From positions 148,863 through 212,862 of the forward strand of contig JBAYUF010000001.1 in the NCBI GenBank assembly GCA_041675205.1: a stretch of DNA of 64,000 nt, read 5' to 3'. The notes under the pieces were generated by a model. It was not told the DNA's origin. It saw only the letters and a list, made by a program, of their open reading frames with translations, and did no database searches. Shown here in pieces: positions 3,250-54,758 of this stretch. The first letter of the stretch is position 1. Each line of letters starts with the position of its first letter. The DNA is from Patescibacteria group bacterium (lineage in GTDB: Bacteria; Patescibacteriota; Patescibacteriia; GWA2-46-9). The translations under genes were made by a program, and so were the position numbers.

Positions 3250-4338
3250 ATGAAATTTGAAGGCGCGCCACAATTTAAGCCAGAAGAAAAATTACAGGAA
3301 CGCTTGCAGGCGCAAGTGGAAGTTTTTGCCGACAAAGGCGTAGAAAACTTTACAGAAGAGCAAGCTAAAATACTAAAATATTCTGCCGAACTTTCTAAAA
3401 TAAAAGATTTAAACAACTTACCACCGGATTTGCCGGAAGAGCTTGTTGCTCTAATTCAAAAACATAAAGACACTTATGTAAATTTCTTGCGCCAAGAAAG
3501 AAAATTGGAAACCTCTTTCATTGAAGAAAATATCAAAACGTATAAGGAGAAGTTTCAACCAGTAATCGCCGAATTGAAGGCAAAAATGGCGCATGGAAAT
3601 TTCAAAGAACTTCCTGAATATCTTGGTTCTGGAAGCAATGGCTCAGCCTTTCGAATTGAGGTGGATGGCAAAACGTACGCCGCGAAATTCTCAAAAAGTA
3701 TTACTCAAGTAAATTTTGAGATCAAGCCACTTCTTCGAGCAGAGGGTATTCCACACACTTCCCAGCTTGTCAGCTATTCTTTTGACGATGGCGTGGTGAT
3801 TATGGAGCTATTGGAAGGAACGGAGGTAGCAAATTTTACACCAGAAGAAGCACCAGAATATTCTGACGAACACATAATTCAACTCATTGACACGGTGCGA
3901 GAACTCGACGCGAAAGGACTTGTTATTGACCCGAAGGCGTCTAATTTTATGTATGACCCGGAGCAAGGGTTTTCTGTTTTGGACTACCATTTAAAAACTG
4001 CTGGTAGTAGATACGGACTTCCGCAAGAAATAATTAGCTTGAGAATTGCTCTTACGGCAAGAAAATTTGAAACACTTGACTACAAAGCTCCCGATTTCGA
4101 GGAAAAAGAAAAAGCACAGTCAATAGAACGAAATAAAATTTATTTGCCGTTAATGGTTCGTCTGTTCGGTATTCTAAAAGAAAAATATCCTGATATTCTT
4201 GCAGAGTGGCAAAGACAGCAGGATGAAGATAAGAAAAATCCGAATATGTCAGTTCCCGATTTGATTGACAGAAGATATATTTCACAAAATCCTGAGTTAG
4301 AACCTCATATTAAAAAATTAGAGGAAATGGGTTTTTAA
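3250..4338 (+). CDS. eukaryotic-like (atypical) protein kinase domain protein with N-terminal coiled-coil region
   Basis: Gly-rich loop LGSGSNGSAF, lysine in YAAKFSK, catalytic-loop-like IDPKASNF (D-x-K-x-x-N), and VLDY in the DFG position. AT-rich. Confidence 0.55.
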   Translation: MKFEGAPQFKPEEKLQERLQAQVEVFADKGVENFTEEQAKILKYSAELSKIKDLNNLPPDLPEELVALIQKHKDTYVNFLRQERKLETSFIEENIKTYKEKFQPVIAELKAKMAHGNFKELPEYLGSGSNGSAFRIEVDGKTYAAKFSKSITQVNFEIKPLLRAEGIPHTSQLVSYSFDDGVVIMELLEGTEVANFTPEEAPEYSDEHIIQLIDTVRELDAKGLVIDPKASNFMYDPEQGFSVLDYHLKTAGSRYGLPQEIISLRIALTARKFETLDYKAPDFEEKEKAQSIERNKIYLPLMVRLFGILKEKYPDILAEWQRQQDEDKKNPNMSVPDLIDRRYISQNPELEPHIKKLEEMGF

Positions 4339-11875: not shown

Positions 11876-12247
11876 TTGAAATATATGAACAATAGTATGG
11901 ATATATATAAAGGCCATTGTCATTGTGGCGCTGTTACGTTTACTGTCGAAGCTGATTTAGAAAAATCAATTACTTGCAATTGCTCGCGATGTGAGGCGTT
12001 GGGGTTAATCTTGACGTTTGTACCAGCGGCGCAATTCACGTTATTGTCCGGGGAAGAAAATTTAACAAAGTATCACTTCAATAAGAAAACAATCGACCAT
12101 TTGTTTTGTGCAACGTGCGGGGTTGAATCATTTGCAAGGGCTACAAATAAGGCCGGCGTCGCAACTGTTGCCATAAATATTCGCTGCCTTGATAATGTCG
12201 ACCTGTCGGCGTTAAAGCCCACAGCAGTAGACGGTAAAAATTGGTAG
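11876..12247 (+). CDS. GFA family (glutathione-dependent formaldehyde-activating/CENP-V-like) zinc protein
   Basis: CHCGAV...CNCSRC...CATCG cysteine pattern. Confidence 0.65.
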   Translation: MKYMNNSMDIYKGHCHCGAVTFTVEADLEKSITCNCSRCEALGLILTFVPAAQFTLLSGEENLTKYHFNKKTIDHLFCATCGVESFARATNKAGVATVAINIRCLDNVDLSALKPTAVDGKNW

Positions 12248-12259
12248 TCAGTTTTCTTC

Positions 12260-12299
12260 CCAACCCCTCTCTGTTAGCGTTGCTACTGAGAGGGGTTGG
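12260..12299. terminator. bidirectional terminator hairpin
   Basis: CCAACCCCTCTC-tgttagcgttgctact-GAGAGGGGTTGG, a perfect 12-bp stem between convergent genes. Confidence 0.55.
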
Positions 12300-12313
12300 A
12301 GTTCGGCGCTTTT

Positions 12314-12751
12314 TTATGTGATCATGGCCCTGATTTTCGCCGCCGTTATTGCGATCACAAATCGTGCCAGTTCCTTATGGTCATCGACGTCAAAGGGGAA
12401 GACTTGAATGATTCTTCCGCCGTTTACCAGGGTGACATCCAGAACGGTATAGCGACAGCGACGGTGAACTTCACGATAGATCACCGCACACAAAGCTATC
12501 CAACCGATTAACATCGCTAACGCTGCAGTGATTGCCCAGGTTTGGTAAGTCTCAAAGACAATCACTGCTCCAATCACCGCGATGGTAATCCTGTCTTCAG
12601 TGGATACCGTGGCGGAGCGGACTCCCAACCTGCCGCGTTCGATGTCTTCGGCGTAGAAGTTGACGGTGTTGCCGTCAGCAGTAATACTGGCACGTGTGTC
12701 GTTGAGCGAGATGGTCGCCCCGGCCTTGAGGGTAGAAGCGAAATTAGCCAT
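12314..12751 (-). CDS. hypothetical protein with central TM helix
   Basis: Strong RBS GGAGGAGG upstream of the ATG (reverse strand). 145 aa. Confidence 0.5.
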   Translation of the reverse strand: MANFASTLKAGATISLNDTRASITADGNTVNFYAEDIERGRLGVRSATVSTEDRITIAVIGAVIVFETYQTWAITAALAMLIGWIALCAVIYREVHRRCRYTVLDVTLVNGGRIIQVFPFDVDDHKELARFVIAITAAKIRAMIT

Positions 12752-12902
12752 GGCAGATACCTCCTCCTGCCTTTCAAATTTTCAAAGAGGGCCATAGTTT
12801 ATCGATGACAGAGAGGATTGTCAATTACGCATTTGTTCCATTAGTACTCTTCACGTATATTCAATTCACCATACTAAAATTCTTTTTTACATATTAGTTT
12901 CT

Positions 12903-13568
12903 ATGGATACTCGAGATGCTGCACGTGTTGATGTACTTACGAATTGTATTTGGAATTACCACTTGCTTCATCAGGAATTGCAGCCTGCCGATTGCATTAT
13001 AGTGCTCGGCAGTCACGATACGCGCGTTGCTGAATACGCTGCCAAACTTTTCCTCGATGGCTGGGCGCCGCTAATTGTTACCTCGGGTGGCTTCGGTCGT
13101 TTGACGAAAGATATTTGGAGTGTCAGCGAAGCAGAAACTTTTGCGGCTGTCATTCGTGGGTTGGGTGTGCCAAGTGACAACATTCTTATTGAAAACGATT
13201 CAACCAATACTGGTGAAAATATTTCTTTCAGCAGGGCACTCCTTCAATCGAAGGGCTTAATGCCCATGCGCGTTATCGCTGTGCAGAAACCTTATATGGA
13301 ACGACGTGCTTATGCGACGTTTCAAAAGATATGGCCAGAGGTAGAAGTTATAGTAACGTCGCCACCAATTGCATTTGCAGATTATCCGACGAAGTTTCGC
13401 TCTAAAGAAGAAATTATCAATATTGTGGTGGGGGACTTGCAGCGCATCAAAGTATACGCAAAGCGAGGATATGCAATTCCTCAGGAAATACCAGCTACTG
13501 TATGGGAGGCGTATGAAACGCTAGTGGCCATGGGGTACACAAGTCACCTTATTGCGGATGCTACTTAA
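12903..13568 (+). CDS. DUF218 (YdcF/ElyC/SanA-like) protein
   Basis: IIVLGSHD...VTSGGFG...NDSTNTGENI motifs. Confidence 0.65.
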   Translation: MDTRDAARVDVLTNCIWNYHLLHQELQPADCIIVLGSHDTRVAEYAAKLFLDGWAPLIVTSGGFGRLTKDIWSVSEAETFAAVIRGLGVPSDNILIENDSTNTGENISFSRALLQSKGLMPMRVIAVQKPYMERRAYATFQKIWPEVEVIVTSPPIAFADYPTKFRSKEEIINIVVGDLQRIKVYAKRGYAIPQEIPATVWEAYETLVAMGYTSHLIADAT

Positions 13569-46218: not shown

Positions 46219-46254
46219 AAAACAGACAGGGGCCTCCGGGTCCTGTCTGTTTTA
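46219..46254. terminator. bidirectional terminator
   Basis: AAAACAGACAGG-ggcctccgggtc-CTGTCTGTTTT, a perfect 12-bp stem between convergent rpoD and the second sigma gene. Confidence 0.6.
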
Positions 46255-47163
46255 CTGCTCGTTTTCAAGTAGTATTTCTAGCGCTCGTTTCTGCCGGAGG
46301 ATGTTCTCCAGCCATGCTTCTGTGTACACGGCGTTTGCAGTTTGCAAGCAGCGCCAAAGCCGCTTGATTGTCTGGTTGACCATTTGACGAGAGACGCCGT
46401 GTTTCTTGCCGACTTCTTCCAAGGCTATTCCATCGTCATTCCAGATGCCGTGACGATCGATGAGGAACGAAGCATTTCGTTCTCGCAGTGCCTTGCGCCC
46501 CCTGGCGTCAGCACGGTAAACGTCGGCGACGAACTGCTCTAGTCGAAGCGTAACGTCGACAAGTTCACCTTTTGCCATTCGTATCGTTTCTGGCGCTGGT
46601 GCACCAGCAGCCATAACGTCGTGAAGTGTGCGACTTTCGCCATCCTCGGTCATTAGCGGTGCATCGAGCGATCGTCCACGTTTCGGAAGCACCGGCTCTG
46701 ATGCGGCATCAATAGCGGCACCAGTTACATCAGCGTGCTTCATAATTTCATCTCGTGTTGGTTTCCTCCCTAACGCAACTTCGAGAATCAACGTGGCTGC
46801 TTTGATGCGCTTGGACGCAGCGTAGAGATAGCTGGGGTAGTGAACAGCAGTATTTGCTGTAGCGTTGGCACTATTTAAGGCGCCGAGTATGTACCAACTA
46901 GCGTACCCTCGAAAATTTCCGCCTTTCCGTTCGTCGAAGCGTATGGTGGCTTCAACGAGGCTGCAGTATGCGATTTGCTCTCGCTCCTCAGCTGTCAGTT
47001 GGCGACCCATGTTCGTAATTCTGGCAGACCACCGTGCGAACCATAGGTTCCTTTCAACGAGCTCGTTTCGGGCGGCGAGATCACGATTTTCTCGCCATCG
47101 TCGCGCTAGCTCTCGTTCGAGTTCTGCGTCTTCACTTTTCGATTTCACTGTATCCTCCTGCAC
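46252..47163 (-). CDS. alternative sigma-70-family sigma factor
   Basis: Region 2 FRGYASWYILGALNSA. Region 4 HTH LEEVGKKHGVSRQMVNQTIKRL. Confidence 0.65.
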   Translation of the reverse strand: MQEDTVKSKSEDAELERELARRWRENRDLAARNELVERNLWFARWSARITNMGRQLTAEEREQIAYCSLVEATIRFDERKGGNFRGYASWYILGALNSANATANTAVHYPSYLYAASKRIKAATLILEVALGRKPTRDEIMKHADVTGAAIDAASEPVLPKRGRSLDAPLMTEDGESRTLHDVMAAGAPAPETIRMAKGELVDVTLRLEQFVADVYRADARGRKALRERNASFLIDRHGIWNDDGIALEEVGKKHGVSRQMVNQTIKRLWRCLQTANAVYTEAWLENILRQKRALEILLENEQ

Positions 47164-47226
47164 CCTATGTTTTGAACTGGGTGCGACGTCGCTACACTAC
47201 CGACAACAGCTGTATAACGTCAAGTT

Positions 47227-47637
47227 TTAAAGAAGCATTTTTAGCGCAAGGAGCGCGATAGCTGTGCAAATGCTGGCAGACAGTAAACACCACGTGCACC
47301 ATTCACGTAAAATGAAAGCCTGAATGGCAGTGAGATAGAGCGAGAAGCAAAAGGCAAATAGTGAAAGGATGAACGTTGCAGTGATGAGCAGCGTGCTTTC
47401 AAGGCCACTAATAATAGCCACTATATGTGCTACTGCGGTAAAGCCATAGTAGGCCATACCCAGGAACTCAAGTGGAATACCGAATAATTTTGAATATCGA
47501 CTGTGCACCACGGTCTCGCACTTGTGTTTCGTTATGGGGCAAAGCAGTGGTACTGGGCCATGTTTGTGCCGGTAGACATAAAGTGCAATGGCAAAGCCGG
47601 AGCTCGCGAGAAGAATTATGGCAAGATGAAATAACAT
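47227..47637 (-). CDS. vitamin K epoxide reductase (VKOR) family membrane protein
   Basis: C-terminal CTWC redox motif plus an earlier CPITKHKC loop cysteine pair. Four TM helices. Confidence 0.65.
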   Translation of the reverse strand: MLFHLAIILLASSGFAIALYVYRHKHGPVPLLCPITKHKCETVVHSRYSKLFGIPLEFLGMAYYGFTAVAHIVAIISGLESTLLITATFILSLFAFCFSLYLTAIQAFILREWCTWCLLSASICTAIALLALKMLL

Positions 47638-47688
47638 AGTTGCGCCATAGTAACGTATGCAGAAGAAACTGCCTAGTCATTCCATCGC

Positions 47689-47716
47689 TTGACATACCCC
47701 CAGGGGGGTATATAGT
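47689..47716 (+). promoter_or_regulatory. sigma-70-like promoter with embedded CsoR-type operator palindrome
   Basis: TTGACA-N16-TATAGT. The spacer is the palindrome ATACCCCC-A-GGGGGGTAT, matching the known CsoR operator pattern TACCC-N-GGGTA. Confidence 0.55.
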
Positions 47717-47722
47717 GTCGGT

Positions 47723-47989
47723 ATGGAATCATCCAATACTAAAAAACTTGTTCGTCGGCTGAAGATAATTGAAGGTCAAATTCGTGGTCTGCAAACTATG
47801 GTTGCAGATGGCACGTATTGTATTGATGTAATTACGCAAACGTCTGCTGTGAAGCAGGCGTTGTCGAACGTAGAAGATATTTTGCTCGAAAATCATCTTG
47901 GATCTTGTGCCATAAAGCAGGTGCAGTCTGGGCAAGTGGAGAAAGCGAAGCGTGAAATACTTCGAGTTTATAAATTAAAACGACGCTAA
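47723..47989 (+). CDS. csoR: CsoR/RcnR family metal-sensing transcriptional repressor
   Basis: DUF156 fold. Metal ligands in YCIDV ... H ... C (GSCAI) arrangement. First gene of the cop operon. Confidence 0.7.
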
Positions 47990-47990
47990 T

Positions 47991-50252
47991 ATGCGCTCAG
48001 AAACGCTTCGTGTTGTTGGTATGCATTGCGCATCCTGTGCGTTTAATATTGAAAAGGCCATTAAAAATAAGCCTGGCGTTGGTACCGTCGCGGTTAATTA
48101 CGCTATGGAGTCTGCGGAAATTACTTATGACGAAAAGGCGACAACTATAGCCGACCTGTCTAAAGAAATTGCGCCACTTGGCTATTCGTTTGCGACTCAA
48201 GATGCGGCAATGGAACATCACGCCGGTGCTGATATGAAAGCTGACGAGCTTACGACGCTTCGCCACAAAGTTGTGGTCGCTATTCCGCTTGTGGTCATTA
48301 GTGTTTTTATAATGGTACTGGAATTTTTGGTGTATCCATTTGCGGTTATTCCTGAATTGCCAGTTGCGGCAGAAGAGTTTATGCACCATCTTATGCCAGT
48401 GCTCGCCACGGTGGCTCTCTTTTTGGTTGGTGACCAGTATATAAAAGGCGTATGGGTATTTTTGCGCCACGGTGTTGCCAATATGGATACGCTCGTTGGC
48501 ATAGGCACGATGACGGCTTTTGCATATAGCTTTATTATCGCTGCTTTTGAGCAGCAGCTCGCACCATACATAGACGTGACCCACAGTTATTATGATGTTG
48601 TCGTCGTGGTCATTGGCCTTATTACGCTCGGCAAGTATTTAGAGGCGAACGCCAAGCGTAGAACTGGAGATGCCATTCGCGCCTTGCTCGGACTGCAGGT
48701 CAAGACGGCGCTCGTCGTGCGTGATGGCGTCGAGCAAGAGCTAGCAGTTGACCAAGTAAAACATGGCGACATTATTATGATTAAGCCGGGCATGCGTATA
48801 CCGGTTGACGGTACGGTACTGTCTGGTAGTTCATACGTTGACGAAGCAATGGTGACCGGTGAACCTATGCCAGTAGAGAAGCGTGTTGGTGAAAACGTCG
48901 TGGCGGGAACGGTAAACACAACTGGTAATTTTACATTCACAGCCACAGGCGTTGGTGAGGAAACCTTGCTGGCAAGTATTGTGAAGCTAGTAGCAGCGGC
49001 GCAAGGATCGCGTGCGCCAATTCAGCGTTTGGCAGATGCCATCTCTCAAGTATTTGTACCGACCGTTATTGGAATTTCTTTTGTAACTTTAGGTCTTTGG
49101 CTTACCGTTGGGCCACAGTATTTGCCTTTTGCTACCGCCCTTTCACTTGGCTTGACGTGTTTTGTTGGCGTACTGGTCATTGCCTGTCCTTGCGCCTTGG
49201 GTTTAGCGACACCAACAGCAATTATTGTGGGGGTAGGAAAGGCGGCGCAAGATGGCATTTTAATTAAGAACGCAGAAGTATTGGAACGATTACACAAAGT
49301 AACAACACTCGTCATTGATAAGACTGGCACGCTCACCGAAGGTAAACCTCGCGTGACAAGTGTGATTCCTTTGGGAGGTCATAGTGAGGACGAAGTACTC
49401 TCGTATGCAGCCGCTCTTGAATCGTTGTCTGAGCATCCCATTGCCACAAGCATTGTGGCTGCGGCAGAAGCAAAACACGTAACAAAAGTACTCGTGAGTA
49501 ATTTTGAAAATATGCCGGGTGTTGGTGTGAGGGGTGATATTGCTGGTGAAGTGTATTACATAGGTGGCCCAGCACTACTCACAAAACTCACTCTTCCTGT
49601 GCCAGCGGAACTTACTGTAATTGCTAACCAAGGTGCGACCGCTGTGGTGCTCGTAGCGAAGCAGCAAATTCTGGGTGTCATTGCTGTGGGAGATGAAGTG
49701 AAGGCCGGTGCGAAACAGGCAGTTCAAGAGCTGCAACACCTTGGTGTCAATGTGATTATGGCTACAGGAGATCATGTTATGTCGGCAAAATTTGTGGCGG
49801 CTGCGGTGGGCATTGAGCCAGAAAATATTATTGCTGGATTACTTCCAGCAGATAAACTGACGTTGGTGCGTGAATGGCAAGCGAAAGGTGCGATTGTGGC
49901 GGTTGCTGGAGATGGCGTGAACGACGCGCCGGCGCTTGCGCAGGCGAACGTTGGAATTGCCATGGCAACCGGCACAGATGTTTCTATTGAGGCAAGCGAT
50001 GTAACGTTGCTTCATGGCGACATAACGAAAGTTGCCAAAGCTATTCTGTTATCGCGCCGTACTATGAGAACCATTCGGCAAAATCTTTTCTGGGCATTCG
50101 CGTACAATGTCATTGGTATACCGCTCGCGGCTGGTCTCTTTTATCCAGTGTTTGGGTGGCTGCTTTCACCGGTTTTCGCTGGGTTTGCTATGGCGTTCTC
50201 TAGTGTGTCTGTATTAGGTAACTCCCTACGCTTGAAATTAATACGTTTATAA
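47991..50252 (+). CDS. copA: copper-translocating P1B-type ATPase
   Basis: [21 protein letters not shown] ([11 protein letters not shown]), [17 protein letters not shown]. Confidence 0.9.
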
Positions 50253-50255
50253 ACT

Positions 50256-51281
50256 ATGGCATCTACCACAAAAACTTTTTCCGTTCACGGTATGCACTGT
50301 GCGTCGTGCGTTGTAGTTATTAACGATACGCTGAAGGCAATGCCAGGTGTGGCGGCGGTTGATACTAATCTTGCGAAGCAATCAGTTACCGTAACTGGTG
50401 AATTTGAACAAAGCGACAACGAACTTGCCGAGCGTTTTACGGAAGGTGTAAAGCATCACGGCTACACCATAACTGAACTCGGTGTTGTTCCGTTGAAAGC
50501 CGTGCTGTGGCGAGATTTTGCAATTGGCGGGATTATTGCTTTTTTGATAGTTGCGGGATTTCTCGCGCTACAGAAAATGGGCATCGGTAACATTTTAGGC
50601 GGCACTGGAATGAGTTACCTCACCGCATTTCTTGTGGGTATTGTTGCTTCACTATCTACATGCCTTGCTATTGTTGGCGGCTTGGTCCTCACGTTGTCGT
50701 CAACGTATGCGCAGAGCGGGAAGAGTTGGCGACCACATGCTGCATTCCATGTAGGTCGACTTGTGGGCTTCTTTATTTTGGGTGGGCTTATTGGTATTGC
50801 GGGTAGCACGTTTCAAATAGCCACCAGTTGGACTGCGGGCATAAGTATTGCTGTTGGTGTTGTTATGTTCCTACTGGGCCTTAGTCTTCTTGAGATAATG
50901 CCTGCGGCAAGTCGGTTGTTACCGCGTTTACCAAGCACGCTGCACAAGCGACTTTCTACTCAAGGGAGTGGCGGTGCAGCTGCACCATTCTTTATTGGTG
51001 CCGCAACATTTTTCTTACCCTGTGGATTTACGCAGTCAATGCAGCTATATGCGCTTTCAACAGGAAGCTTCATAACCGGTGCGCTTACTATGTTCATATT
51101 TACCCTTGGAACGTTGCCAGTACTCCTGTTACTTTCGTTTGGAGCATTTGAGGTGCGTAATAGGTCTTGGCGCGGTATCTTTTTTAAAGCAGCCGGTCTT
51201 CTGGTAATTATACTGGCGCTCTTTAATGTTTATAATGCACTAGCTGTGTTAGGATTTGTGCAGCCAGTAAACATTTTTTAG
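50256..51281 (+). CDS. HMA-domain (GMHCASC) fused to a polytopic membrane protein
   Basis: N-terminal metal-binding HGMHCASCVVVI. C-terminal about 8 TM helices, TauE/SafE- or CcdA-like. Confidence 0.55.
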   Translation: MASTTKTFSVHGMHCASCVVVINDTLKAMPGVAAVDTNLAKQSVTVTGEFEQSDNELAERFTEGVKHHGYTITELGVVPLKAVLWRDFAIGGIIAFLIVAGFLALQKMGIGNILGGTGMSYLTAFLVGIVASLSTCLAIVGGLVLTLSSTYAQSGKSWRPHAAFHVGRLVGFFILGGLIGIAGSTFQIATSWTAGISIAVGVVMFLLGLSLLEIMPAASRLLPRLPSTLHKRLSTQGSGGAAAPFFIGAATFFLPCGFTQSMQLYALSTGSFITGALTMFIFTLGTLPVLLLLSFGAFEVRNRSWRGIFFKAAGLLVIILALFNVYNALAVLGFVQPVNIF

Positions 51282-51287
51282 GAAAAT

Positions 51288-51689
51288 ATGAGAGGTTTTA
51301 TTCTTGTCTTTGGCGTTGGTATGGGGGCTGCTTTAATAATGGCGGTACTATGGTTTGCTGTGCCGGACAATAACGTAGATGTGGCAACTACTGGAGACGC
51401 CGTGACAGTTCTCGAAGATGGTAGTCAGCGCATTACCATATTGGCCCGGGGAGGTTACTCGCCACGGCAGGTAACAGCAAAGGCTGGTATTCCTACGACG
51501 CTGCGTATGAAGACAAATGGTACGTACGATTGCTCGGCCAGTCTTGTTATACCGTCCTTAGGCTACGAAGCGACGTTACCCTCGACAGGTGAAAAAGATA
51601 TTCAGATTTCGGCCAGTCAAGCTAAAGGAACGTTGGATGGCCTCTGTAGTATGGGCATGTACAGTTTTCGTATAAGCTTTGTTAATTAG
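51288..51689 (+). CDS. membrane-anchored cupredoxin-like domain protein
   Basis: N-terminal TM. ITILARGGYSP...C...C..GM pattern common to small cupredoxin-like proteins in copper operons. Confidence 0.5.
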   Translation: MRGFILVFGVGMGAALIMAVLWFAVPDNNVDVATTGDAVTVLEDGSQRITILARGGYSPRQVTAKAGIPTTLRMKTNGTYDCSASLVIPSLGYEATLPSTGEKDIQISASQAKGTLDGLCSMGMYSFRISFVN

Positions 51690-51776
51690 AGTGTTGAATA
51701 TTTTGGAGGGTCGTGTATGATTGGCTTCATTACCTATCAGAGGGTGATTTTTTAAAAAATGTATTCTCGGTAAAGC

Positions 51777-51848
51777 TCCGGGGTAGCTCAGCGGTAGAGC
51801 AGTGCGCTGTTAACGCATTGGTCGTGGGTTCGAGTCCCACCCCCGGAG
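51777..51848 (+). tRNA. tRNA-Asn (anticodon GTT), CCA not encoded
   Basis: Acceptor TCCGGGG/CCCCGGA. D-arm GCTC-AGCGGTA-GAGC. Anticodon stem GTGCG/CGCAT with loop CTGTTAA. T-arm GTGGG-TTCGAGT-CCCAC. Confidence 0.9.
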
Positions 51849-52202
51849 CTTTGGAGAGAATACGACAAAGAGAAGGGGGAGCGAATGAACTGCTTCATTC
51901 GCGTTGGGGCGAGAAAGCCGGAACGATGTCTGAGGAGTACTGCTGACGACGAAGACCGTGAGGCGGGGTCGCGACCAAGGAGGCGGAAGCCGACGAGAGT
52001 TGTGACCGAGTCCCACCCCCGGAGCTTTGGAGAGAATACGACAAAGAGAAGGGGGAGCGAATGAACTGCTTCATTCGCGTTGGGGCGAGAAGCGCGCAGC
52101 GATGTTCGACGAGGATTGCCGCCGAGGCGAACCGCGAGCGGCGGCCTGCGAACGCTGAGGTGGAAACCGAAGCGATTTGTAGGAGAGTCCCACCCCCGGA
52201 GC
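51831..52202 (+). repeat. three direct copies of the tRNA-Asn 3' end (19-20 nt) bounding two ~175-nt tandem units; the first 86 nt of each unit are identical
   Basis: CGAGTCCCACCCCCGGAGCT at 51831, 52007 and 52183. The 66 nt following (TTGGAGAGAATACGACAAAGAGAAGGGGGAGCGAATGAACTGCTTCATTCGCGTTGGGGCGAGAA) is perfectly repeated at 51851 and 52027. Confidence 0.75.
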
Positions 52203-52251
52203 TATCAAAGGACGTCTGTTACTAGCAGGTGTTTTTTGTTACCCTCTACGC

Positions 52252-52560
52252 ATGGCGCCGTATCAATCGTTTAAAATATTCTTGATTGACACGGTTGGAT
52301 TATCTAAAAATGGCTTTCATTTCCTCTTGGGTATTTTTGTCTATTTGGGGGCAGCAAAGGTCTTTAAGATTAAGCTTTCCTCAGCGAAGTCCTTGATCGC
52401 GCCAGCTGTTTTCGCTTTGCTAATGGAAGTGATGGATTTTCGTGACGCAACAGCATACGGTTCGCATTTAAATTGGGTCGATAGTGCAAATGATAGCTTA
52501 TTAACTATTTCACTGCCGTTAACTATCTGGATATACATAAAGCTGCGTAACAGGTTCTGA
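52252..52560 (+). CDS. small membrane protein (AT-rich islet after tRNA-Asn)
   Basis: 102 aa, three TM helices. Confidence 0.4.
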   Translation: MAPYQSFKIFLIDTVGLSKNGFHFLLGIFVYLGAAKVFKIKLSSAKSLIAPAVFALLMEVMDFRDATAYGSHLNWVDSANDSLLTISLPLTIWIYIKLRNRF

Positions 52561-52595
52561 TATCGTCCGCGATTCGGAGTTTTGGTAAAAATATT

Positions 52596-53018
52596 TTGTG
52601 CCACTACAAATCTACATTAGATATGCCAAACGGTAAGGAAGAAAATTTTTCTGAAGGTCACGAGCCGTCAGTTGCTGATGGTGATATGAATACGGAAAGA
52701 GAAAGAACTGAAGCGAGTTCTTCGGGTGAGTTTTCATTTCGCGACGAGGGTAATGTAGCTGAAATACGAATTGATGACCCGGACCGCCTTTGGCGAGTGT
52801 GCCGATCCATTTGTGCAGTCTTGGGAAATGAAATAGCAGATAATCGGCGAGATTATTTTTTCAATAAAGAAATGGGCGGCGAGTTGCGGCCTGGTGGGGT
52901 ATTCTGTGTAACTTTGACAAGCCCAGGTGTTATTTGGGCCTCCGTTCGAAATAATAAAGGAAATCCCGAATACGTTGCCTTGCTACGAAGAGCTGTTGAG
53001 GAAGCGTGCGCATCATGA
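52596..53018 (+). CDS. hypothetical protein
   Basis: 140-aa ORF. No family recognised. Confidence 0.4.
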   Translation: MCHYKSTLDMPNGKEENFSEGHEPSVADGDMNTERERTEASSSGEFSFRDEGNVAEIRIDDPDRLWRVCRSICAVLGNEIADNRRDYFFNKEMGGELRPGGVFCVTLTSPGVIWASVRNNKGNPEYVALLRRAVEEACAS

Positions 53019-53102
53019 ATCGGAATGTATCAAATGCCCAGCTTTTAATCTCAAGCGCATGCTAGTTATTGCGGCAACGGTAGTAAAAAATGTAGAGCAA
53101 CA

Positions 53103-53537
53103 ATGAAAATAATAATTTCTAAATCGGTTAAAAAAGCATCGGAGACCAAAGTACCTGCTGATCTTCGGAAAGCCCTTGCGGCTACTCCTAAGGTAGGAAG
53201 GCTTTGGGAAAATCTCACACCAATCGCTCGCAGAGACTTTATTAGCTGGATTGTTTCAGCCAAACAGCCAGAGACGCGGCAGCGCCGAATCGAGCGAGTT
53301 CCAGACATGCTTATGTCCGGGAAGCGTCGCCCTTGCTGCTATGCGCTTGTGCCAATGGATTTATATAGGGTTGTTGGGGCGAGTGCAAAGGCGAAGGCTA
53401 AGTGGCACGAGCTTACTTCGAATCAACGTAGAGATTTTATTGATTGGGTAGAATCAGCAAAGGAGTCGGAGACGCACAAGAAAAGAATTCAGAAAATTTG
53501 CAGTACGTTGGCAGCTGGAAAGACATTAAAAATTTAG
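53103..53537 (+). CDS. YdeI/OmpD-associated (DUF1801-like) protein, internally duplicated
   Basis: Two copies of the LTPIARRDFISWI..AKQPETRQRRIE / LTSNQRRDFIDWV..AKESETHKKRIQ module. Confidence 0.6.
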   Translation: MKIIISKSVKKASETKVPADLRKALAATPKVGRLWENLTPIARRDFISWIVSAKQPETRQRRIERVPDMLMSGKRRPCCYALVPMDLYRVVGASAKAKAKWHELTSNQRRDFIDWVESAKESETHKKRIQKICSTLAAGKTLKI

Positions 53538-53587
53538 AAGGTAAAATTGTTAAAGTGTTGAGCGTATAAAAAGATTTTAAAATTGAC

Positions 53588-53622
53588 GAGGGGCGGGAAG
53601 ATGCGATGATCTTCCCGCCCCG
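53588..53622. terminator. bidirectional terminator
   Basis: GGGGCGGGAAGAT-gcgatg-ATCTTCCCGCCCC, a perfect 13-bp stem between convergent genes. Confidence 0.65.
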
Positions 53623-53645: not shown

Positions 53646-54758
53646 CTACTTTGGGGGGTAGGTCTTCAGGAACGTGGTCCTGAAGGTTTCGAAAACATCT
53701 TTGCCTCTCCGCCGCCACCAAAGGCGGGCGTAGGCGTCGTCTCGGTTCATGCCAGCCCGCTTCTGGAACAGTTCGTCGGCCTCCTCCACTACCAGCCGGA
53801 ACTCATTGATCTCGAGAAGGGTGGGGTCGGTGGCGGCGACCTCATCCCACGTGAGGTTTGTGAGGTATCGCCCCACGACCTCGTTCGAGATTTGCATCTC
53901 CTTTGCCATCCGCACGAGGATGGCGGCGGCCTGTTCTCGCAGCAGTAGCCGGATTGGATTCGGACTCGTGACGTAGAACTCCCATGCCCAGTGCATGGGC
54001 CACGATACGTGGTGCAGTGCCAACTTCCATTGCTCCTCCGGCAGGTCCTCTTCCTCCGATACAGCGGTCAGAGACGATTGCAGCCTCTGAAGCTGTTCGG
54101 TCAGGCCGCTCTGGTCGAGCGCCGCTCTGATACCTGTGTTCAAGTCGTCGCCTGCCGCCTTGACGGTGTCCAGCGGTCGTGGGACCGCGAAGAACCGTTT
54201 CTCGATGTCGTCGACGTTCACCGTCCAGGCCATTTTCCCGTCGACAATTTGTCCGTACGAGAGAAAAACGACTTTGTTCTCCTCGTAGCGGTCGCTGACG
54301 AGGATGGGCGTGTTTCTCGGTAGGGGTCTCGGGACCCAGTTGATCTTGACGAGGGGGTTTCCGGGGTCCTTCCATCCAACCTCGTAGTCAAACCCTTCGC
54401 AGTTGGACACAAGGCCACTGCTGTCCAGGTCGATGAGCGAGAAGGTGTCGGCGGATGAAACCACCTTCCAGCATTCACTCCCGACGATGTTTCTCCCCCT
54501 GACGACGTTCCAGATGCGGAGCACCTGGCTGGCCACCGAAAGCCGGTAGAGGCCGTCGGTCATCTCAGGTTGGTTCTCCGTGTTGCACTCGATCTCGGCA
54601 CCCGTCACCTTGCAGAGATCGAAGTTGTTTTTGCCCTGGATCTCCACCGCCGGCTGGTAGAACGGCTCGACCATCTGCGCAGGCGATGCCGTTGCCGTGA
54701 ACGTGAATACGACGACGAGCGCAGCCAGCAGCCGCGCCAATGAAAACAAACTGGCCAT
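53646..54758 (-). CDS. secreted hypothetical protein (GC-rich)
   Basis: GGGAGGA-N6-ATG on the minus strand. Signal peptide MASLFSLARLLAALVVVFTFTATASPA. 370 aa. Confidence 0.6.
   Translation of the reverse strand: MASLFSLARLLAALVVVFTFTATASPAQMVEPFYQPAVEIQGKNNFDLCKVTGAEIECNTENQPEMTDGLYRLSVASQVLRIWNVVRGRNIVGSECWKVVSSADTFSLIDLDSSGLVSNCEGFDYEVGWKDPGNPLVKINWVPRPLPRNTPILVSDRYEENKVVFLSYGQIVDGKMAWTVNVDDIEKRFFAVPRPLDTVKAAGDDLNTGIRAALDQSGLTEQLQRLQSSLTAVSEEEDLPEEQWKLALHHVSWPMHWAWEFYVTSPNPIRLLLREQAAAILVRMAKEMQISNEVVGRYLTNLTWDEVAATDPTLLEINEFRLVVEEADELFQKRAGMNRDDAYARLWWRRRGKDVFETFRTTFLKTYPPK

Follow-up and report, generated by a model that had tools for sequence, protein, structure and literature searches.

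A probable RtT-like array of structured noncoding units behind the tRNA-Asn gene of a Patescibacteria genome

When the 3' end of a tRNA gene is repeated in tandem behind that gene, have mobile elements integrated there, or do the copies belong to an RNA? The question is raised by a tRNA-Asn gene in the genome of a Patescibacteria group bacterium (NCBI GenBank assembly GCA_041675205.1, contig JBAYUF010000001.1, positions 148,863 to 212,862 of the forward strand), a stretch of 64,000 nucleotides (nt) that is here referred to as "the window." A first-pass annotation had interpreted the repeated tRNA end as the attL/attR-type scar of integrative elements and mentioned a small structured RNA as a second option. 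We consider it fairly likely that the array is an RtT-like tRNA-trailer RNA repeat, made up of two structured noncoding units of ~176 nt behind tRNA-Asn. It would then be a known kind of element, described from Escherichia coli, in a new phylum, behind another tRNA, and with a covarying fold that is distinct and more elaborate.

The tRNA-Asn gene (anticodon GTT) lies at 51777-51849 on the plus strand, where it was called by ARAGORN and matched Rfam RF00005 with 72 bits. It ends in ..GGAGCTTT, and CCA is encoded neither in the gene nor in any copy of its end in the window. The triple repeat reported by the first-pass annotation is real: the 18-mer GAGTCCCACCCCCGGAGC matches the window exactly three times, starting at 51832, 52008, and 52185 (chance expectation, 0.01; none of 100 shuffles gave three matches), and allowing up to 3 mismatches revealed no occurrence elsewhere in the window. 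Copy 1 (51831-51850) covers the 3' part of the T-loop, the 3' strand of the T-stem, the 3' strand of the acceptor stem, and the discriminator, plus CT. Copy 2 repeats this 20-mer exactly at 52007-52026, as annotated; copy 3, which had been placed at 52183, occupies 52184-52203, with its first base changed (AGAGT..) and 19 nt exact from 52185. All three are on the plus strand, and no further copy, direct or inverted, was found in the whole window with up to 5 mismatches in 20.

Copies 2 and 3 close two plus-strand units of 177 nt each, unit 1 at 51850-52026 and its paralogue, unit 2, at 52027-52203, which consist of a trailer, a structured core, and the tRNA 3'-end copy. According to a repeat finder, the whole interval repeats in tandem, the copies being spaced 176 and 177 nt apart, and 157 nt separate successive tRNA-end copies. 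The earlier description, a perfect repeat of 86 nt followed by ~70 nt of divergence, needs correcting in two respects. The perfect repeat is 85 nt long (51831-51915 = 52007-52091). Beyond it the tandem relationship continues: the units are identical over their first 65 nt and 64% identical over a middle of ~91 nt, where the changes are largely compensatory. Predicted folding energies are -67.2 kcal/mol for unit 1 (z = -4.3) and -70.6 kcal/mol for unit 2 (z = -3.3). Both units contain the plus-strand hairpin that had been noticed at the outset, GCGAATGAA-CTGC-TTCATTCGC, here termed P2 (51881-51902 and 52057-52078; conserved loop region, AACUGCUU), and both were recovered by the covariance model R1, unit 1 at 51873-52027 with 162 bits and unit 2 at 52049-52204 with 166 bits. 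The repeat region has a guanine-plus-cytosine (GC) content of ~61%, compared with mostly 40 to 53% in its flanks.

Homologous units of the window type were found behind tRNA-Asn in three metagenome contigs, L051, L053, and L070, the tRNA sequences and neighboring genes of which differ. We aligned five units from four distinct genomes, namely, both window units and one from each of these contigs (L061 is a duplicate of L070). RNAalifold predicted 49 base pairs from this alignment, 26 of them with compensatory changes. By explicit count, 93.8% of the cells were paired across the five sequences, and 26 pairs had changed on both sides, compared with 9.5 ± 2.3 in column shuffles (0 of 500 reached 26) and with 3 to 6 covarying pairs when the partners were slid by 1 to 3 columns; the covariation score was 0.52, versus 0.19 for the control. 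Between unit 1 and unit 2, 15 of the 49 consensus pairs differ, 10 through double changes that keep the pair and none through one-sided changes; the other 5, all at the base of a single helix, are problems of register. Hairpin P6 keeps its GGAA tetraloop and P2 its tip, AACUGCUU, in every unit, while their stems have changed wholly: six of the nine P2 pairs covary across genomes, and in L053 P6 has become an A/U helix, AAAAUUUUUC-GGAA-GAAAAAUUU. Furthermore, G-U pairs outnumber A-C pairs 10 to 4 on the tRNA-sense (plus) strand. On this comparative sequence evidence, the units are under structural constraint and are not neutral scars, and the option of a small structured RNA, secondary in the first-pass annotation, gains support.

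The consensus fold is closed by a helix between the start of the unit and its tRNA-derived end, in which GGGG pairs with the acceptor CCCC and GUGGGAU with AUCCCAC of the T-stem and T-loop; in the window, 5' GGGG(G) and UGGGGC are predicted to pair with the tRNA-derived GUCCCA-CCCC(C). The two 5' pairings join into a single, uninterrupted closing helix (helices 1 and 3 of alignment A2; 85 to 100% paired), which leaves the tail GGAGCU single-stranded, much like an acceptor/T-arm stack, and encloses P2, a three-way domain (P4/P5), and the long hairpin P6 with its GGAA cap. The T-loop of the window tRNA reads GAGU, versus GAAU in relatives. The 3' end of the units matches the window tRNA in this respect, and GGGGC has replaced GGGAU in the 5' strand, which keeps the pairing with the altered T-loop copy.

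Related loci were collected with a metagenome scan for two copies of TCCNNCCCCCGGAG lying 165 to 225 nt apart, a design that selects for that spacing. It returned 53 loci, of which ~25 (~17 distinct) consist of tRNA-Asn with a second copy of the tRNA end downstream; the layout is thus conserved across Patescibacteria. Thirteen loci share the order dnaG-rpoD-tRNA-Asn, and the RpoD proteins of scan loci are 55 to 88% identical to that of the window. The two free T-stem positions are equal in tRNA and copy for 6 to 7 variants, with one exception, which implies that the copied end follows the tRNA of its own genome. Several types of unit body can be told apart, ~110 to 290 nt long and variable in their interior. 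R1 is strong only on the window type (E values of 0.003 to 0.2 on the others), and many of the other types start with a GGGAUUCGAAC-like sequence that is antisense to the T-loop and T-stem. The alignment of one of them, type C, was too unreliable in the middle for a covariation count. Among the known RNA families in Rfam, only tRNA and group I intron were found at the loci, and a scan of a genome collection with the narrow pattern GAGTCC..GGAGC returned only coding repeats.

The loci linked through RpoD provide a sample that was not selected for the 165- to 225-nt spacing. Behind tRNA-Asn, the window and L043 carry two units each, L103 one unit, L102 a short partial tRNA copy, and L044 and L045 a serine recombinase gene; the contig of L100 stops 53 nt past the tRNA. 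In L043, the RpoD of which is 88% identical to that of the window, rpoD and tRNA-Asn are followed by further tRNA-end copies at 183 and 245 nt, with bodies unlike those of the window. According to the first-pass annotation, the same triple repeat in related genomes lacking the insertion would indicate a feature of the tRNA trailer instead of att duplication. This is what was observed: L043, which has neither the copper-resistance (cop) cluster that precedes the window array nor the genes that follow it, carries tRNA-Asn and two 3'-end copies, and ~17 other distinct tRNA-Asn loci likewise carry a repeated tRNA end. The partial copy in L102 (11510-11545, minus strand) comprises 30 nt of the 3' half of tRNA-Asn, lies 45 nt behind the tRNA, and reaches from the anticodon stem into the beginning of the acceptor strand; it is a shorter and different partial duplication at the same site.

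Eight scan matches came from outside the Patescibacteria and represent a tRNA-Pro locus with the same layout. A search of complete E. coli genomes identified this locus as proK, where the unit is annotated as "RtT sRNA," and the Rfam model of RtT (RF00391), run as a positive control, scored 100 bits on it (L047; gathering threshold, 45 bits). At tyrT-tyrV of E. coli K-12, a 175-nt unit lies between the tRNA genes and three 178-nt units follow tyrV; they end in the 19-nt tRNA-Tyr end AATCCTTCCCCCACCACCA, which is present six times, and are annotated as rttR and tpr. The layout in the window is identical. Units of both kinds lie directly 3' of a tRNA gene and on the same strand, those of the window starting at the base after tRNA-Asn; their 3' ends are copies of the ~19 terminal nt of the tRNA before them, starting in the T-loop (Tyr and Pro in E. 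coli, Asn in the window); and they stand in tandem, at 176/177 nt in the window and 175, 178, 178, and 178 nt in K-12. Their closing helix, the 5' strand of which is antisense to the T-stem and acceptor 3' strand, encloses hairpins, and the interior consists of GA-rich hairpins. The Rfam RtT consensus has a 5' strand, GgGaaGGAU, antisense to AUCCuuCcC, with GAGAA next. Behind the closing 5' strand comes GAUGAGAA, in E. coli as well as in two window-type units, those of L070 and L051, which also share the motif GGAUGAGAAG. A terminator separates tRNA and unit at proK and is lacking at tyrT; both arrangements also occur in the Patescibacteria set.

The window units differ from RtT in having the extra hairpin P2, which splits the closing helix, as well as a larger three-way interior, and no CCA is encoded at the ends of the window copies. 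The host differs, too: the Rfam RtT family has gammaproteobacterial members, whereas the window belongs to the Patescibacteria, where several unrelated-looking unit types occupy the same site. By analogy, we describe the array as having RtT architecture and, probably, the same way of working, and not as a member of RF00391. As for that way of working, two sources that cite Bosl and Kersten (1991) state that processing of the tyrT transcript sets the rtT RNA free and link this RNA to the response to amino-acid limitation (PMC4986893; 10.1101/2024.07.17.603846). Within E. coli, a query from L047 (7620-7990; tRNA-Pro, a complete RtT unit, and the beginning of another) was covered over at least 80% of its length in 2507 of 5423 genomes. 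Many other genomes match the query in two pieces with tRNA-Pro as the sole annotated feature, which may reflect variation of RtT copy number or presence within the species.

How might such an array work in the window? The tRNA-Asn is enclosed by a 23-nt leader/trailer helix that extends its acceptor stem, the leader arm at 51761-51783 (plus strand) pairing with 51841-51863 (arms 87% complementary); the region 51755-51870 folds at -55.8 kcal/mol (z = -6.9). The trailer arm recurs after unit 1, at 52017-52039, and the leader could pair with either trailer. No terminator was found between tRNA-Asn and the units in the window, and the array is closed by a weak terminator-like hairpin with an A-tract, a stem, and T6 (52206-52238, plus strand; -12.2 kcal/mol, z = -2.0). 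Together, the leader/trailer helix, the one terminal hairpin, and the lack of an internal terminator fit a single transcript, and the latter two are candidate support for a discrete processed RNA. We propose that the tRNA and both units would be transcribed as one RNA from a promoter near 51700 to this terminator; a sigma-70-like candidate, TTGAAT-16-TATGAT, was located by consensus match at 51694-51721 (plus strand), ~55 nt 5' of the tRNA. The tRNA 3'-end machinery would cut after each discriminator G. Because CCA is not encoded, the enzyme proposed is RNase Z, with CCA addition next, and the cuts would yield the tRNA plus two RNAs of ~176 nt, each with a 3' end like that of a tRNA. A distant likeness exists to tRNA-like 3' modules such as MALAT1/mascRNA and the tRNA-like structures of viruses, in which a stack mimicking the acceptor and T-arm also ends a non-tRNA transcript. 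Those modules are eukaryotic or viral and mimic the whole tRNA fold; they are not copies of a neighboring tRNA's own 3' end. By analogy, the tRNA-like end in the window could recruit tRNA end-processing enzymes.

Several points weigh against an RtT-like RNA. The window type of unit is represented by only four genomes, and its structure was derived from the same five sequences in which covariation was later counted. Strong terminator hairpins stand behind both the tRNA and the unit in most relatives (those after the units of L051, L053, and L070 have a weak equivalent in the window), and a hairpin between tRNA and unit is awkward for cotranscription there. Most relatives encode ..GGAGCCA, while the window tRNA and its copies end in ..GGAGCT. 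The promoter candidate was one match against 1.0 expected in shuffles, and the terminal hairpin was not called by a strict terminator scan; both are weak. The closest relatives, with 88% identical RpoD, have other unit types or a recombinase at the site, which fits mobility better than a vertically inherited RNA gene. The Rfam RtT model gave no match on the window, whether at the gathering threshold or at E values up to 10, or on 18 plus 6 related loci, again at E values up to 10, and R1 gave only chance-level matches on E. coli RtT sequences, none on an RtT unit. With no model match either way, the link to RtT rests on layout and a short motif and not on demonstrable homology; homology and convergence are not separable on these data. 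Finally, cotranscription, processing at the tRNA-like ends, and any function are steps that we infer.

If the RtT-like reading holds, it matters in several ways. That an RtT layout recurs in Patescibacteria, the genomes of which are reduced, with a covarying fold and behind another tRNA whose sequence it tracks, argues that the layout itself is selected. The Patescibacteria units would offer a second, very distant sequence set for defining the conserved core of RtT, an element that has been known in E. coli for decades (via Bosl and Kersten 1991) and can now be compared with it. There is also a warning for annotation, since repeated tRNA 3' ends read as attL/attR would yield false islands at such loci. 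Lastly, the position after dnaG-rpoD-tRNA-Asn is a hot spot of variation, with different unit types, tRNA genes interrupted by group I introns, serine recombinases, and defense genes, which bears on how such minimal genomes vary.

The strongest competing explanation, which we regard as possible rather than probable, is that of the first-pass annotation: attL/attR-type scars of tandem elements that targeted tRNA-Asn and decayed to ~157 nt each. A live variant would have gene-less miniature cassettes moved in trans by a recombinase acting on the T-loop and 3' end. As expected for attachment sites, a direct repeat of the tRNA 3' segment flanks the intervening DNA in the window, and the duplicated block starts in the T-loop and runs to the 3' end, as do many att sites; Williams (2002) is reported to have described this part of the gene as a classical integrase sublocation. 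In relatives, each tRNA-end copy has its own terminator, like tRNA ends borne by elements, and the unit types are patchy with respect to RpoD kinship, such that relatives at 88% identity lack the window type and one at ~80% has it. Where the window has the bracketed DNA, relatives at 88% have other units (L043) or the recombinase gene (L044 and L045), a comparison above the strain level, as the contigs L001 and L002 are from the same strain as the window. Type C units keep GAGGG as their 5' strand, and their 3' end can be CCCUC or that of the host, CCCAC, a pattern suggesting that exchange affects this end independently of the unit body. L070 carries defense-type cargo, with a helicase gene between two tRNA-end copies and an Abi gene behind a further, degenerate copy, and the serine recombinase genes of L044 and L045 lie directly behind tRNA-Asn. 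Across relatives, the region downstream of tRNA-Asn varies and includes Fic, restriction-modification, Abi, and YdeI genes. The patchy unit types, the recombinases at the site, and the cargo in L070 keep an integrative or recombinational origin in play.

Several findings speak against scars. Neither an integrase, an integrase fragment, nor a conserved open reading frame (ORF) was found in or beside the window units, and the 157-nt intervals are instead collinear homologues with a preserved structure. Had two elements decayed independently, collinear remnants of 177 nt with invariant loops and 10 compensatory pair changes would not have remained. No recombinase recurs among 24 loci, and every small unit has a clean layout of terminator plus body with no gene debris, within a scan that selected for spacing. 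The downstream gene set at 52252-53540 is not an island bracketed by these repeats: it lies beyond the last copy, and no tRNA-end copy with up to 5 mismatches in 20 follows it. Phage, plasmid, and viral collections, among which the first-pass annotation had proposed to look, gave no matches.

Island hot spots are known to contain partial tRNAs in arrays (Islander, PMC4383910; tycheposon preprint, 10.1101/2020.12.28.424599). Such arrays resemble the window array in that several tRNA 3'-part repeats stand in a row behind an intact gene, in the variable and defense-gene-rich neighborhood of relatives, and in the recombinases found at the same tRNA in L044 and L045. They differ in that the window intervals are 157 nt of conserved, covarying, noncoding sequence with no integrase or gene debris, and in that the genes downstream are not enclosed by a repeat.

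The recombinase loci have features of their own. In L045 (11990-13540), an ORF for a large serine recombinase, missed by the gene caller, spans ~12165-13370 on the strand opposite to the tRNA (in L044, 12500-13004). It is flanked by inverted repeats of ~130 bp that are 97 to 100% identical and contain GC-rich palindromes and the reverse complement of the last 8 nt of the tRNA. This arrangement suggests that the segment is invertible or was recently inverted.

A broader reading, speculative and in our view doubtful, would join RNA and mobility. RtT-type units would form a phylum-spanning class of tRNA-end-matched RNA cassettes that are gained, lost, and exchanged at the shared end, E. coli RtT and the Patescibacteria types would be products of one mechanism, and the units would seed the variable, defense-gene-rich region behind the tRNA, the RNA fold being needed for maintenance or movement. 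Within the less ambitious RtT-like reading, too, the family turns over among lineages, so that its units may spread, or be swapped by recombination at the tRNA end that they have in common.

We think it unlikely that the units are nonfunctional tandem duplicates or pseudogenes of tRNA-Asn that arose by slippage or unequal crossing-over and were homogenized by gene conversion. The 85 identical nt in the window copies would fit gene conversion, and by our own reading, window-type units keep GGGG-N-AGC and GUGGG at the positions that correspond to those in a tRNA. Sequences that look intermediate between tRNA and unit also exist, in the form of tRNA-Asn-like copies that keep the GUU arm in L082 and of copies with hairpin insertions in L077 and L084. 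In the window, however, similarity to tRNA is not demonstrable beyond the last ~20 nt (61% over 56 nt), and the compensatory substitutions and invariant loops in four genomes point to selection on the fold of the non-tRNA part. The copies in L082 (5020-5500, minus strand) are four tandem sequences of 111 nt in which the GUU anticodon arm is kept and the D-arm and T-loop are replaced by hairpins (UCCGUCGGUUGACGGA and UCCGCCAGCUGGCGGA); an extra partial copy lies at ~3920-3990. The hairpin UCCGCC..GGCGGA of L082 is also found in L084 and L077 and as P5 of window-type units.

Folded single-stranded DNA recombination sites, comparable to the attC sites of integrons or to IS200/IS605-type element ends, are a very unlikely substitute for an RNA. 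An imperfect inverted repeat does delimit every unit, with a GGGAUUCGAAC-like 5' arm and GAAUCCC as the 3' arm; structure is kept over a variable interior and lengths of ~110 to 290 nt; and cargo can lie between the units of an array. The GNRA-type GGAA tetraloop is nevertheless retained over unrelated stems, G-U pairs exceed A-C pairs on the tRNA-sense strand, and the terminators that follow units are on that same strand. No IntI-, Y1-, or TnpB-like gene was present at any locus, and a TnpB-type guide would target the intact tRNA gene itself.

A peptide-coding role, with small arginine-rich products like E. coli Tpr, is highly improbable. Two ATG-start ORFs do lie head to tail within the window units (51885-52064, 59 amino acids [aa]; 52061-52225, 54 aa), the product of unit 1 would contain ..RPRRRKPTR.., and the E. 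coli unit carries the 29-aa "protamine-like" tpr, the ATG of which is inside the GGAUGAGAAG motif. The two window peptides are, however, unrelated past residue 10, where an indel shifts the frame, and by our own translation, the window lacks the motif ATG that L051 and L070 have. CCAAGGAGGCGGAAGCCGACGAGAG reads RPRRRKPTR in window unit 1 and L051 and ATEEAEADE in L070. In our reading of the sequences, the frames of the 59- and 54-aa ORFs differ among homologous units, and this lack of coding conservation makes a peptide unlikely; substitutions track base pairing and not codons. The chance that the array is a collapsed or chimeric assembly is negligible: a Logan contig (L002) does stop in repeated sequence ~10 nt past the tRNA end, as a true repeat predicts, and against an artifact stand the separately recorded k141 contig L001 in ENA (213 kb; 1 mismatch in 20.4 kb), which is identical through the whole array, the differences in the middle of the units, which make them resolvable in assembly, and the same layout in many unrelated contigs.

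Other classes of RNA and repeat were tried and rejected. Type C units (GGAUUCGAAC-GGGCAG...CUGCCC-AGGAC) recall transfer-messenger RNA (tmRNA) and lack an acceptor 5' strand, have a tRNA-Asn-type 3' end, and received no ARAGORN call. YrlA, tmRNA, and riboswitches gave no match or chance-level matches, and ARAGORN found no tmRNA. Guide RNAs (TnpB omega RNA, IS110 bridge RNA, or the homing spacer of a CRISPR-associated transposon) would require genes that are not nearby; the "guide" is paired inside the unit and would target the tRNA gene. The template and variable repeats of a diversity-generating retroelement were rejected, as the differences between units are not adenine specific and no reverse transcriptase is present.

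The tRNA-Asn genes of relatives show variation of their own. A group I intron splits the anticodon loop (CTGT / TAAC) in several related contigs, at 385-684 in L070, 2973-3220 in L056, ~4400-4790 in L053, 1-90 in L072, and ~10750-11030 in L103. Rfam RF00028 scored 70 and 52 bits on the intron, which contains an HNH-type ORF in L053 and L056, and ARAGORN misses tRNAs split in this way. In L051 (1013-1087), ARAGORN called a tRNA-Asn with the anticodon ATT in front of the window-type unit; its T-loop is altered (GGGGTCGAA), and it may be a decaying or unusual tRNA.

Proteins encoded near the array are those of Patescibacteria, with Candidatus Uhrbacteria as the closest named relatives. On the 3' side, the ORFs at 52252-53540 are as the first-pass annotation described them: two have no assigned family (52252-52560 and 52596-53018), and a YdeI/OmdA gene follows at 53103-53537, with a perfect 13-bp hairpin at 53590-53621. 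The GC content of this gene set, 40 to 48%, is within the range of most of the remaining profiled stretch. No recombinase was found among the genes neighboring the window array. Next comes an ORF of 370 aa (53646-54758, minus strand) with ~58 to 61% GC, compared with 40 to 50% in its neighborhood, and a signal-peptide-like start, which suggests a secreted protein; Pfam and NCBIfam returned no match. We rejected the idea that it is a hidden recombinase, given its lack of a family and its N terminus. In the output of one gene caller, the ORF is divided in two, with products of 305 and 100 residues.

On the 5' side, dnaG and rpoD precede a second sigma-70-like gene, a VKOR gene, and the cop cluster (CsoR-like repressor, CopA, HMA-DsbD_2, and cupredoxin), the last three occupying 46252-51689, between rpoD and tRNA-Asn. 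In relatives traced by synteny of the cupredoxin gene, the cop cluster is not linked to tRNA-Asn, so this route yielded no orthologous loci. In L043, the tRNA stands directly behind rpoD, and in L004, a homologous cop cluster lies beside a recombinase fragment; from these two arrangements, the cop cluster of the window looks like an insertion.

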